32,000 nucleotides of DNA from Promethearchaeota archaeon (GTDB lineage: Archaea; Asgardarchaeota; Thorarchaeia; Thorarchaeales; Thorarchaeaceae): NCBI GenBank assembly GCA_027031765.1, contig JALVPN010000110.1, forward strand, positions 73,936 to 105,935, in the 5' to 3' direction. Below the pieces are notes generated by a model. It made no database searches, was not told the DNA's origin, and saw only the letters and a program-made list of their open reading frames with translations. The translations under genes were made by a program, and so were the position numbers. Shown one piece after another: positions 2,518 to 5,705 of the stretch (the stretch's first letter is position 1; every line of letters begins with the position of its first letter).

Positions 2518-2868
2518 TCAGGACCTGCTCTTCTTCACAATCTCCACGATTTCGGCGAGCTGCTCGTCCGTCAGATTGGTGGTGCGTGCGTCCAGTATTG
2601 TGCGCAGTTCCTCAAGTGTGGTGGGTGCTATGTTCGCCACCTGCACGGCCTGTGCACGCGTGATGCCATATTTCTTGACCAGCCGCTCCACCAGTTTCTT
2701 GGACACGGCCGGGGCCATCTTGGAGAATATCGTTGCGTGCTCAAGGGTGATTAGCTGTTGGAACGACAGCTCACTACCCCTCTCGCGTTCTTCCTTGGCC
2801 CGTTGCGAGAGGATTTTCTTCACCTGGGCGAGCGTGACCTCTTCCTGACCGATAATCTCCTTAGGCAT
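2518..2868 (-). CDS. rpoF: DNA-directed RNA polymerase subunit Rpo4 (RpoF)
   Basis: MPKEIIGQEEVTLAQVKKIL...ELSFQQLITLEHATIFSK...AVQVANIAPTTLEELRTIL; follows rpl21e. Confidence 0.92.
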   Translation of the reverse strand: MPKEIIGQEEVTLAQVKKILSQRAKEERERGSELSFQQLITLEHATIFSKMAPAVSKKLVERLVKKYGITRAQAVQVANIAPTTLEELRTILDARTTNLTDEQLAEIVEIVKKSRS

Positions 2869-2872
2869 CGCT

Positions 2873-3169
2873 TCATCCCCTGCTCGGCCGCAAGTGCTCC
2901 GGTCTCACAATCAGCGTCTTCGTGGCCTTTCCTAGGGCCACGTCCACTATGATGCCCCGTCCGCGTTTCCCTGTGACGACCCCCGTCCTCCCGTGATACC
3001 TGCGGTGTGGCATGCCCTTGTGGAAACTGGGGTCTATTATTATGTCGACCCGCTGACCCACCTCATAGTCAACGAGCAGATGGCCCAGCGGTCTCATACC
3101 ACGCTCTCTGACCCGCTTGCTGAGGAGGGACCGTGTCCTTGCCCTGTACCCATGACTGTTCTTGACCAT
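2873..3169 (-). CDS. rpl21e: 50S ribosomal protein L21e
   Basis: SHGYRARTRSLLSK, GMPHRRYHGRTGVV and VRPEHL signatures. Confidence 0.97.
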   Translation of the reverse strand: MVKNSHGYRARTRSLLSKRVRERGMRPLGHLLVDYEVGQRVDIIIDPSFHKGMPHRRYHGRTGVVTGKRGRGIIVDVALGKATKTLIVRPEHLRPSRG

Positions 3170-3284
3170 CGGGCATCATCCTGCCAGTCCTTTTGCCCCG
3201 GTATGCCATAAACCTTAGACCTACTAGTGCATGCCCGAGGCTCAGCATCACGTCCGGAGTAGTCACTTAAGGGTTATGGTCTGT

Positions 3285-4339
3285 GGTTCTGTTGAATTAT
3301 TGTTGGTAAGATGGAAGAACCAAATATGAGACTATTGAGTTTTCTTGGTCTTGCTCCGGAGAACTACACGGGCGTTACGAACTTCATAAAGATGATATGC
3401 TGGTATATCTTATAGGTGATGGACGATGAATAATAAAGATACAGGGGAGGACTCTGGAATGATAGAGAAAAAGATTGGGCAACAATACGAGGAATGGGCA
3501 AAAAGCTACGACGAAGACAAAATCAAATTGTTCGGAGAGTCTGGGGTGGATTATAATGAGTTTATGAAATCACTCCTATCACTGTGTGAATTGAAGCCCA
3601 ATATGAGTATTCTAGATGTCGGGGCTGGGACAGGACTAACATCTATTGCAATAGCAAAAGCGCTCTCATGCAATTGCAGAATTCTCGCTGTTGAACCCAT
3701 TGATGAAATGATTGAGAGGGCCAGAACAAATGTTCAACAAGAAGGAGTTGAAGACTGCATAGAGTTCAAGAATGGCATAGGGGAATCTCTTCCATGCAAT
3801 GATGAGGAATTCGATCTGGTGACCTGTACATTTGCCATCAGACATATGGACGTTGAGGGAGCACTCTTGGAATTTGAAAGGGTTCTAAGGCCAAGTGGAA
3901 GGATTGTGATTGCAGATATATGTGCACCAGAAAAATGGAGGAGCCTGCCCGGGAAAATAATCACGCCCTTGATGCAGTTTATGATAAGCCGGAAGTATAA
4001 AGGAGAAATGAAATCAAAAGTTCTAACCGTAAACGAATGGAAAACGTTGATTGAGAAACTGGACTTGAGAATTCGTAGTATTGTGGAGTTTCCTGGAAAG
4101 AGAGAGCCAGAATGGGAGATTAAAAGGGTAATAATGTCTATCCAAAAGGGTATTCAATGATGAAACCAAGTTGTGCTGGCAGGCTTGGGCACTCTGCGGT
4201 GCATCGTACCCTTCCCCCTATCGGGGCCACTTGGCAAGCGGATATCTGGCTACGGCTGTCGACTTCGCGCAAATCCTCCGCTGTCGCTCAGGCTCCAGAT
4301 ACCCACCCGACATCATACCGACAATAGGTTGACAGAACT
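3285..4339. mobile_element. Non-autonomous IS6-like cassette (terminal inverted repeats, no transposase) carrying a methyltransferase passenger gene
   Basis: Left end GTTCTGTTGAATTATTGTTGGTAAGATG (3286-3313) versus the reverse complement of the right end GTTCTGTCAACCTATTGTCGGTATGATG (4311-4338): 22/28 identical. The left terminus GGTTCTGTTG matches IS257/IS1216 ends as recalled. Flanks TGGTCTGT (3277-3284) and TGTTCTGC (4340-4347) match 6/8. Interior spot counts are 37-40% GC versus about 65% in a flanking line. Confidence 0.65.
3426..4160 (+). CDS. Class I SAM-dependent methyltransferase (UbiE/COQ5-like, Methyltransf_11/25 type), foreign passenger gene
   Basis: ILDVGAGTG motif I, LAVEP, ESLPCNDEEFDLVTCTFAIRHM and VLRPSGRIVIAD; AGGTGAT ribosome-binding site at 3414-3420; AT-rich; opposite strand to its neighbours. 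Confidence 0.88.
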   Translation: MNNKDTGEDSGMIEKKIGQQYEEWAKSYDEDKIKLFGESGVDYNEFMKSLLSLCELKPNMSILDVGAGTGLTSIAIAKALSCNCRILAVEPIDEMIERARTNVQQEGVEDCIEFKNGIGESLPCNDEEFDLVTCTFAIRHMDVEGALLEFERVLRPSGRIVIADICAPEKWRSLPGKIITPLMQFMISRKYKGEMKSKVLTVNEWKTLIEKLDLRIRSIVEFPGKREPEWEIKRVIMSIQKGIQ

Positions 4340-4346
4340 TGTTCTG

Positions 4347-5705
4347 CTAGTCCCCATATACCGCAGTCACTACGAGTTCTCTGCATGTACACTCAGTACC
4401 CAGCAGCTCGGAGAGCGATGGGCGTGTCCTCCCACCATCACCAGATATCAGCTCCTTGACATACGTCCCACCCTGGACCCTGAAAATGCCCTCCAGAGTC
4501 CTCGGCCCACACCTCTTGAGCTCGACAAGGTACACATGTTTCTCCCGAGTCCTGTCACTGCGTCTGTGCAGCACCCGGTGTGGTGTCTGCTGCTCAACGG
4601 TGACCCCTGAGAGGGCTGATGCAGCCTGTCGGACTGCCACGTCGTCCACATCCTCTGCTGTTTCTATCACTGCACTGTACTCCTTGATGTTTGCAGAGGC
4701 CTCTTCCTTCAGCTTGTGCATGTGATGCCTGTCAGTGAAGCGCAGGTCATGTACCTCCACCTTGCCCTCGGCCTCCCTGTTGATGGTCTCCTGCAGCTCG
4801 GCGAGGTCTACCGACCTGACCCGCGGCTCAGACACCTCAACAACAAACGGCCGCCCAGTCCCCAGCATCAACACATCGATGTCCTCTCTCCCAGCAGCAT
4901 GAAACTTGAAGCGTTTACCCTCGGCCAGTCTCTGCGCCGGCACCCCTATGTACTCTGCAATGGAGTCTGGGTATTTCCGCCCGGTGCCACCACAACTGTC
5001 GCACCCCTTCCCACGACACTCGGGACAGTCCCATCTGCTCTGTGGGATCCCACGCTGGAGCTTCTTGTACCGGCCGTATATGAATATCGGGCTGACCTGC
5101 AGCTTGACATCATGTCCTGCAACATCGTAGACTATCACCATCTGGGGGGACTCGAAGTCCACAGGCCTACTGAGCCGCCGCTGCAGGGCGCGTCCTATCT
5201 CTCGGTTGATTTCCGAGCGTATCGTCTCTCCATGGACAATCCCATGCTGCCCACGAAGCTCGTCCTCCCGCTCTGCAAGGTTGGGCGGTGGGATGCTCCC
5301 GACAAGAAAGCTGTCAAACTCGTAGCCGTCGACTGCCAAGAGGATGTCCTCTACGATGCGGTTGATACTGTCGAATATTGGGACGCCACTGACTGAGCAC
5401 AACCAGCATGTCCTCTCACTGTCGAACGGGATGCCGTACTTCTCTGCAAGGGCCCGTGCTGGCGCAAACATCCCGTTTTCAGCAAGTGTCCTCACCAGTC
5501 CGCGCCCCCACTCGTCCTTTCTCTCCCTTATGGCCGCGTCGGCAAGCATCATGAGGACCATCTTTATTGCATGCCCCCGTTCCCTGTTCGTAGTACCGGT
5601 TCCCAGCCACGCGACCTGTCTGCCCAGGCAGAAGTCGCATAGTGGTCGCTCGTGGAGAATTGCCTCGGCCACACGTAGGAGCTCAAGCCTGTCGCTCTCT
5701 GTCAT
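4347..5705 (-). CDS. pus10: tRNA pseudouridine(54/55) synthase Pus10
   Basis: N-terminal LCDFCLGR and CWLC zinc ligands, GRYKKLQRGIPQSRW, FHAAGREDIDVLMLGTGRPFVVEV (catalytic Asp) and GGTYVKELISGDGGRTRPSLSELLG. Confidence 0.96.
   Translation of the reverse strand: MTESDRLELLRVAEAILHERPLCDFCLGRQVAWLGTGTTNRERGHAIKMVLMMLADAAIRERKDEWGRGLVRTLAENGMFAPARALAEKYGIPFDSERTCWLCSVSGVPIFDSINRIVEDILLAVDGYEFDSFLVGSIPPPNLAEREDELRGQHGIVHGETIRSEINREIGRALQRRLSRPVDFESPQMVIVYDVAGHDVKLQVSPIFIYGRYKKLQRGIPQSRWDCPECRGKGCDSCGGTGRKYPDSIAEYIGVPAQRLAEGKRFKFHAAGREDIDVLMLGTGRPFVVEVSEPRVRSVDLAELQETINREAEGKVEVHDLRFTDRHHMHKLKEEASANIKEYSAVIETAEDVDDVAVRQAASALSGVTVEQQTPHRVLHRRSDRTREKHVYLVELKRCGPRTLEGIFRVQGGTYVKELISGDGGRTRPSLSELLGTECTCRELVVTAVYGD

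Follow-up and report, generated by a model that had tools for sequence, protein, structure and literature searches.

A transposase-less gene cassette with IS6-type ends in the pus10-rpl21e spacer of a Thorarchaeales genome, a probable derivative of an archaeal cargo transposon

The DNA analysed here (the window) comprises 32,000 nucleotides of contig JALVPN010000110.1 from a Promethearchaeota archaeon of the order Thorarchaeales (GCA_027031765.1). Between the host genes pus10 and rpl21e it carries a 1,055-bp insert (3285-4339, tip bases included), which holds a single intact methyltransferase gene and is bounded by inverted repeats, both of them homologous to the ends that flank transposases of the insertion sequence (IS) family IS6 in other archaea. 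Very probably, the insert is non-autonomous, arose by deletion from an archaeal IS6-type cargo transposon and reached the spacer by DDE transposition. The features of the insert, followed by those of its host surroundings, are:

3277-3284, no strand: left copy of the 8-bp target-site duplication, TGGTCTGT; agrees with the native sequence of relatives
3285-3313, plus strand: left terminal inverted repeat, type B; 2 of 22 positions differ from the family 22-mer
3314-3425, minus strand: subterminal region with a decayed relic of the last ~25 transposase codons; from DNA alignment, weak beyond ~3360
3459-4160, plus strand: cargo class I S-adenosylmethionine (SAM)-dependent methyltransferase, 233 aa; Pfam Methyltransf_11/25/31
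4187-4227, minus strand: 3' extension of the structured module, two short hairpins and a GCAGAGT motif; unit profile match to position 153, and alignment
4228-4318, minus strand: core of the structured module, with closing stem, long stem and three-way junction; covariance model R1, 45.3 bits, E 2.6e-8
4311-4339, minus strand: right terminal inverted repeat, type A, abutting the module; 4 of 22 positions differ from the family 22-mer, including A for G at the tip
4340-4347, no strand: right copy of the target-site duplication, TGTTCTGC (6/8), overlapping the last base of the pus10 stop codon
3255-3276, minus strand: spacer motif (plus-strand consensus CACTTAAGGATTATGG), intact and adjoining the left duplication copy; kept in 19 of 19 related loci
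2873-3169, minus strand: rpl21e (ribosomal protein L21e), host gene downstream of the insertion; Pfam Ribosomal_L21e, E 1.6e-38
4347-5705, minus strand: pus10 (tRNA pseudouridine synthase), host gene upstream of the insertion; Pfam Pus10_C, E 2.9e-67

Borders and composition of the insert

The two repeat arms (3286-3313 and 4311-4338) are 28 nt long and match at 22 of 28 positions (79% complementary), forming the longest inverted repeat found in 3000-4700. An earlier reading of the letters alone (the sequence-only reading) had described these repeats, as well as 8-bp flanks that match at six positions; the repeats were recovered by the inverted-repeat search, and direct reading of TGGTCTGT (3277-3284) against TGTTCTGC (4340-4347) gave the same 6/8. 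The left end of the element starts GGTTCTGTTG and has the GG tip followed by CTGTT, while the right end starts AGTTCTGTCA and has both a mutated tip and a mutated T. The insert as a whole has ~40% GC and its flanks 58%. Over 3200-4170 the GC content is 38-46%, an AT-rich, foreign composition compared with 55-62% in the flanks, and it rises to 61% at 4175-4324, still within the element. Pfam detects no transposase domain in the element, and its sole long open reading frame (ORF) is that of the methyltransferase. The sequence-only description of one AT-rich methyltransferase and no transposase is thus correct at the level of Pfam domains, but it overlooked a 3' relic of a transposase gene at the left and a GC-rich structured module at the right.

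The source genome is a metagenome bin of 2.95 Mb in 229 contigs (95% complete), and the repeat is imperfect, so that one may ask whether it arose by chance on either side of a gene gained by horizontal transfer, or whether the region is an assembly chimera. We consider either extremely improbable. Both ends match the profiles of their family far beyond chance (below), and a repeat of at least 22/28 arose in 0 of 60 first-order Markov resamples of the surrounding 3 kb, the best of which reached 21. A contig from a second assembler, built from the probable source run (a hydrothermal vent metagenome), is identical base for base over 2600-5000 and spans both junctions, which are therefore not an artefact of one assembler, though this second assembly derives from the same sample as the first.

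The insertion point in related genomes

The genomes available for comparison belong to other genera of the same family, at ~68% identity, the collection containing none of the same genus. The pus10-rpl21e spacer measures 111-122 bp in 17 of 19 related loci and 1,177 bp in the window, equal to 122 + 1,055. DNA homology across genera extends from rpl21e to window position 3284, breaks, and resumes just past 4340, beyond the pus10 stop codon, so the borders predicted by the sequence-only reading coincide with the breaks seen across genera. All relatives share a spacer motif with the plus-strand consensus CACTTAAGGATTATGGTCTGTTTC; the window agrees with it up to ...TTATGGTCTGT, where the element begins. 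The conserved motif at 3255-3276 is probably the B recognition element (BRE)/TATA region of the rpl21e promoter. Among sequencing runs, the stretch occurs (as contigs) in the probable source run only; no RNA run is listed with it, and contigs show no empty-site joint, results without bearing on expression or polymorphism.

DDE transposition would have brought the element into the ~10 bp that separate the pus10 stop codon from the rpl21e promoter, duplicating 8 bp of target, and the promoter-side copy of the duplication would have kept the rpl21e promoter whole. Its position immediately after the pus10 stop and upstream of the rpl21e promoter, as the sequence-only reading had placed it, agrees with the right duplication copy overlapping the stop codon and with the intact motif beside the left copy. 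A foreign methyltransferase has in this way become fixed in a tight gap with both neighbouring genes unbroken.

On the minus strand, 4 nt separate the window duplication from the conserved CCTTAAGTG-type box that precedes rpl21e. In about 8-9 of 12 complete elements, a TATA-like box starts 4-6 nt outside the duplication on one side, a count that comes from a small sample and AT-rich DNA. Insertion next to TATA boxes as a habit of these elements is only a lead.

Two further observations concern the same spacer. In a genome of the same family (G018, L014:1880-3040), an unrelated insert of ~1.17 kb interrupts the same spacer motif ~10 nt from the window site. This insert lacks inverted repeats, and its ORFs are all broken, one of them encoding thrombospondin-type-3-like repeats. 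It may reflect repeated insertion at one promoter-proximal spot, or else a chimeric assembly. In the window itself, the ~95 nt from the promoter-like box to the rpl21e start (3170-3276, minus strand) are conserved across genera and include a hairpin-like CGAGGTCCAGCA...GGGTC segment; this stretch may form a structured leader of the L21e mRNA.

Same-ended relatives across the Archaea

A degraded IS6 element from another family of the same phylum (L048) has ends that resemble those of the window. A 21-nt degenerate pattern of these ends, run over 400 genomes of the phylum, gave 24 matches outside the window's own genome, against 7 with a reversed-pattern control, and most of the 24 are variants of a single sequence, GGTTCTGTTAACTTATTGTTGG. 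The species-representative genome collection contains this exact 22-mer in 45 contigs, and 74 metagenome contigs carry it as well, against a chance expectation of ~0.1; the viral contig collection (viral_contigs) has none. The window ends differ from the 22-mer at 2 of 22 positions (left) and 4 of 22 (right), and a degenerate 28-nt consensus of the two had no match in the genome contig collection (genome_contigs). The genome contigs with the 22-mer are labelled Bathyarchaeota, Nitrososphaerota/Thaumarchaeota, Thermoproteales, Methanobacteriota, Methanosarcinales, Archaeoglobales, Methanothermococcus, Thermoplasmata, Hydrothermarchaeota, Aenigmatarchaeota and Iainarchaeum. The ends are nearly identical across more than ten archaeal phyla. 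Besides the archaeal labels, two contigs (L086 and L101) of one bin labelled Actinomycetota carry exact archaeal-type ends and a transposase that is 88% identical; this bin is probably the result of mis-binning, or else of cross-domain transfer.

The ends of the family fall into two kinds. Type-B ends continue TGAGATGAAAAAT and have a transposase gene oriented toward them, its stop codon ~45 nt away, while type-A ends continue TATAAC and then pass immediately into a GC-rich conserved stretch of ~130-150 nt. The left end of the window matches the type-B profile over positions 1-52 (E 1.7e-5 among the loci, 1.4e-4 in the whole genome), and the right end together with its module matches the type-A unit profile (E 1e-18 among the loci, 1.2e-17 in the whole genome). 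The transposase beside type-B ends has hundreds of homologues with PF13610 that their sources name IS6 family transposase. It is of the IS6-family DDE type with an N-terminal zinc finger, and the full-length copy in L122 scores 153 bits against the NCBIfam IS6 equivalog cut-off of 125.

An IS6 transposase between the same ends, for which the sequence-only reading had proposed a search, was found in six complete elements, and in degraded form in L055; in L176, as in L055, the transposase is decaying in place. All six complete transposase-bearing elements, listed here with their lengths and target duplications, contain both ends and passenger genes:

L122: 3,125 bp; duplication GGTAAGTG (perfect 8 bp)
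L199: 4,729 bp; duplication CGATAATT (perfect 8 bp)
L184: 2,772 bp; duplication GGAAAAGC (perfect 8 bp)
L173: 2,708 bp; duplication 7/8
L158: 2,511 bp; duplication 7/8
L151: 3,762 bp; duplication 7/8

The order in intact relatives is an inverted repeat, a transposase gene reading toward it, at least one unit consisting of its own promoter, a cargo gene and a structured module, and a second repeat abutting the last module. The window element would have lost the transposase gene except for a short 3' relic, leaving one unit (the SAM methyltransferase and its module) between the repeats.

Loss of the transposase

Cassettes with other cargo and no transposase, whose existence the sequence-only reading had made a check of its proposal, are represented by L112, L114, L201, L198 and L165. 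Together with L055, in which a transposase remnant persists, the shorter relatives are:

L112: 1,261 bp; duplication GTTTAACCA; AlkD-type DNA alkylation repair enzyme
L114 (= L170): 1,464 bp; no clear duplication; metallo-beta-lactamase-fold protein
L201: 2,533 bp; duplication TCGCCTCAG; Rce1-like/methyltransferase fusion
L198: 925 bp; duplication 7/8; Rce1-like protein
L165: 878 bp; duplication 7/8; diphthamide-synthase-like fragment
L055 (same phylum): 1,402 bp; duplication TTAAAAAG (perfect 8 bp); methyltransferase and stop-ridden PF13610 remnant

Inside the type-B end of L201, ~125 nt survive from the 3' end of the transposase gene. The window aligns with this region, and with the type-B ends of transposase-bearing elements, clearly to ~3360 and weakly to ~3420, which identifies the window element as a deletion derivative of a cargo transposon.

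The alignment is compatible with two histories. In the first, the transposase was lost before entry and the cassette was mobilised in trans, a putative step. In the second, an autonomous cargo transposon inserted into the spacer and later lost its transposase by internal deletion, the cassette never having been mobilised in trans; we regard this as quite possible, at a little less than an even chance. The relic inside the left end of the window, the same kind of internal deletion with a clearer relic in L201, the transposases decaying in place in L055 and L176, and the single copy of the window element all fit loss after insertion. However, several transposase-less elements of 0.9-2.5 kb have clean or near-clean duplications, so that a pool of mobilisable derivatives fits equally well, and the deletion carries no date relative to the insertion.

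A structured module abuts the right end

The GC-rich stretch behind type-A ends is a structured module that consists of a short closing stem (TAAC/GTTA), a 9-11-bp stem, a three-way junction with two hairpins, and a 3' extension with two more hairpins. In an alignment of 26 sequences, 87% of cells are compatible with the pairing, compared with 75% after shuffling and ~40% when the partners are slid. Of the 26 pairs, 15 show compensatory changes, and the observed covariation score was reached in 0 of 500 shuffles. RNAalifold recovered the fold on trimmed alignments and not on the plain MAFFT alignment of whole units, and Rfam gave no family for the module at E up to 0.1 in eight loci, including that of the window. 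The closing boxes read ...TAAC ... GTTA..., in some copies GCCTAAC/GTTAGGC, with many deviant copies and a partial fit to RYYYAAC/GTTRRRY; those of the window are degenerate (ATGATG ... CCAAGT).

Modules were found in 9 of 101 related genomes searched. A convergent ORF ends within 260 nt of the module in 45 of 56 assessable modules (median 68 nt), figures that stand without a random-expectation control. The window has one module unit and no array, while modules also occur as same-orientation arrays, both without IS ends (e.g. L088, L080, G045, G060, G040 and L034) and within complete transposons (L116/L199 and L158). Breaks of homology coincide with the module 5' border in two independent settings: in L087, transposase homology ends where the module-plus-cargo block starts, and in L069 and L110 a common cassette extends as far as that border.

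In L034:3291-6383, the gene for the closest homologue of the window methyltransferase shows translational coupling to that of an Rce1-like protease; a module comes next, then an NfeD-like gene and a second module. These two units form an array, and the 6.5 kb of sequence available for this locus contain no IS ends. The first of these modules is detected by covariance model R1 directly 3' of the methyltransferase gene; the gene-plus-module unit therefore existed before it sat between IS ends, and because the module is shared, the DNA homology between the window and L034 extends 72 bp past the stop codon. One may thus propose that the methyltransferase-module unit arrived through site-specific recombination at the module, integron- or Xer-like, the IS-like ends being incidental or secondary. 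This would agree with the L034 unit, with same-orientation arrays that mostly have no IS ends nearby, and with breakpoints at the module 5' border. It is nevertheless improbable as the route into the spacer, since the borders of the window insert are the tips of the two inverted repeats and not those of the module, the flanks resemble an 8-bp duplication, and the loci inspected contain no tyrosine recombinase. Such recombination may explain the exchange of units inside transposons, not the arrival of this one between pus10 and rpl21e, for which DDE transposition is the preferred explanation.

What the module does can be addressed tentatively from its fold and its neighbours. It may, by analogy with attC sites, be a recombination site used as folded single-stranded DNA, delimiting units of promoter, gene and module that IS6-type transposons would gather, transport and swap between archaeal phyla, with the window element as a one-unit remnant; we put this forward as a doubtful, though not fanciful, suggestion. 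An RNA role, antisense or terminator-like, is also possible. Folding energy is lower on the strand antisense to the cargo, and G-U pairs exceed A-C pairs by 81 to 38. This excess comes largely from two conserved G-U pairs, so the strand bias does not settle between an RNA and a single-stranded DNA form. The ten large ORFs neighbouring modules are housekeeping genes with no tyrosine recombinase among them, in the few loci checked.

Helix P1b of the module (L099:5988-6063; window ~4240-4275) contains GGGCGAG...CGAACC with facing GA dinucleotides and appears kink-turn-like by eye; a kink-turn here would suggest an L7Ae-binding RNA. In the source run, a low-depth contig of 151 nt matches 33 nt of the module (window 4284-4316) with 3 differences and has unrelated flanks, which indicates other module copies in the same community.

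The methyltransferase and the cargo of the family

The methyltransferase ORF is intact, with SAM motif I (ILDVGAGTG) and a Methyltransf_11 match at E 2e-20. The start at 3459 (233 aa) is preceded by GGAGG and agrees with the length of homologues; an alternative start at 3426 would give 244 aa. The region 3314-3425 probably holds the promoter, with the GGAGG before 3459 as ribosome-binding site, and the gene, which runs opposite to the host genes, probably relies on signals of its own for expression. Its similarity is of a generic, UbiE/ArsM-like kind, every NCBIfam match lying below its cut-off. The closest homologues are 67-70% identical and lie in contigs without IS ends, where the gene overlaps an upstream Rce1-like membrane protease gene or adjoins a PEMT/ICMT-type methyltransferase. 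No remnant of an Rce1-like gene was found upstream of the window methyltransferase, and the assemblies gave no match to this exact methyltransferase.

Recurrent cargo of the family includes class I methyltransferases (26-31% mutual identity), Rce1-like proteases and ICMT/PEMT enzymes, together with the repair enzymes AlkA, AlkD and endonuclease III, toxin-antitoxin pairs and regulators. Judged from the sequences, the choice of cargo looks non-random. DNA alkylation repair cargo (AlkA, endonuclease III, AlkD-like) recurs in L173, L176, L069, L110 and L112, from several phyla.

Age of the element and weight of the evidence

The genome of the window contains no second copy of the element or of either end, and no match to PF13610. 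The sole trace of an IS6 transposase in it is a stop-ridden, frame-shifted pseudogene on another contig (C75:3800-4480, minus strand; tblastn E 7e-8 to the L122 transposase) that has host-like GC and no recognisable terminal repeats. Within the host's own taxonomic family, a transposase fragment was found in 1 of 36 related genomes searched, and isolated ends or modules occur in G013, G022 and G370. From the drifted repeats, the 6/8 duplication, the decayed relic, the single copy and the dead pseudogene, we conclude that this is an old insertion: the element is an immobile fossil that has retained an intact cargo gene.

Several points weigh against a derivative of an IS6-type transposon. The element lacks a transposase, its right tip is AG and not GG, and its flanks agree at six of eight positions. 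Its own genome, as just described, offers neither a second copy nor a PF13610 protein, and an identical transposase-less cassette at a second site was absent from every collection searched. The empty site is read across genera at ~68% identity. In addition, the archaeal 'IS6' elements are experimentally untested and only loosely related to IS26 (PMC7986276, PMC6807381), and Harmer and Hall argue that archaeal members may not belong in IS6/IS26 at all (PMC6807381). The proposal of the sequence-only reading, an IS6-ended gene cassette mobilised in trans, therefore stands with respect to the insertion, the IS6 ends and the same-ended relatives, while its mobilisation in trans is no more than putative, the genome having no active IS6 element or second copy and the collections searched showing the same cassette at no other site. 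Likewise, its idea of a gene-shuttling system in this lineage is borne out in that other cassettes exist, but these are pan-archaeal and rare in this lineage.

Comparison with known systems

The hallmarks of the IS6 family are GG tips, an internal cTGTt motif, repeats of 15-20 bp and 8-bp duplications, with the bacterial terminal consensus GGTTCTGTTGCAAA; its published members are simple elements of ~0.8 kb, with one passenger-carrying member (ISDsp3) and two miniature inverted-repeat transposable elements (MITEs) (PMC7986276, PMC6807381). The left tip of the window element, GGTTCTGTTG, equals the first 10 nt of that consensus and has both GG and CTGTT, and relatives of the element make 8-bp duplications and encode an IS6-family transposase between the same ends. 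The element departs from the family in having no transposase, in its longer repeats (~22-28 nt) and in the structured module that forms part of the element, and members of its own element family routinely carry passengers. The window element is accordingly not an IS6 member in the strict sense, as it has no transposase, but a derivative of one. Since it encodes an intact 233-aa methyltransferase, it is not a MITE either.

A closer parallel is provided by the mobile insertion cassettes (MICs), such as MIC231 of the Bacillus cereus group, in which IS231 ends surround non-transposase genes and for which trans-mobilisation has been shown by experiment. The window element likewise has IS-family ends that bracket a passenger gene without a transposase, which would presumably act in trans. 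It differs from MIC231 in IS family and domain of life, and in a cargo unit that ends in a conserved folded module. By analogy, the element works like a mobile insertion cassette on archaeal IS6-type ends. In the literature searched, we found no published description of gene-carrying transposase-less IS6-type cassettes in Archaea or of the module, and a text search of papers for the 22-mer terminus returned unrelated primer sequences only.

The element is a single fossil from a family whose members as a rule carry cargo and in which transposase-less derivatives persist, and the wider family is of more interest than this single decayed copy. Identical 22-nt ends occur in methanogens, Archaeoglobales, Bathyarchaeia, Nitrososphaerota, Thermoplasmatota and DPANN, a good number of which come, as the source sample does, from hydrothermal sediments. 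Ends shared in this way point to a concrete path by which genes have recently passed between distant archaea.

The module itself is best compared with the attC sites of integrons, which in Archaea are reported mostly as integrase-less arrays, the clusters of attC sites lacking integron integrases (CALINs) (Ghaly et al. 2022, PMC9668308). Two conserved features set it apart from attC sites, a three-way junction with fixed motifs and the 3' extension. Unlike integrons, modules have no integron integrase nearby in the few loci checked, and their arrays can lie inside IS6-type transposons. As in attC sites, it follows single genes, forms same-orientation arrays, and folds better antisense to the cargo, and its stems covary while the sequence drifts; its inverse closing boxes (TAAC/GTTA) fit the attC consensus only in part. 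If the module does serve as a recombination site, these elements would be an integron-like system carried on transposons, though one in which no integron integrase has been seen, and would add a second layer of modular gene exchange.

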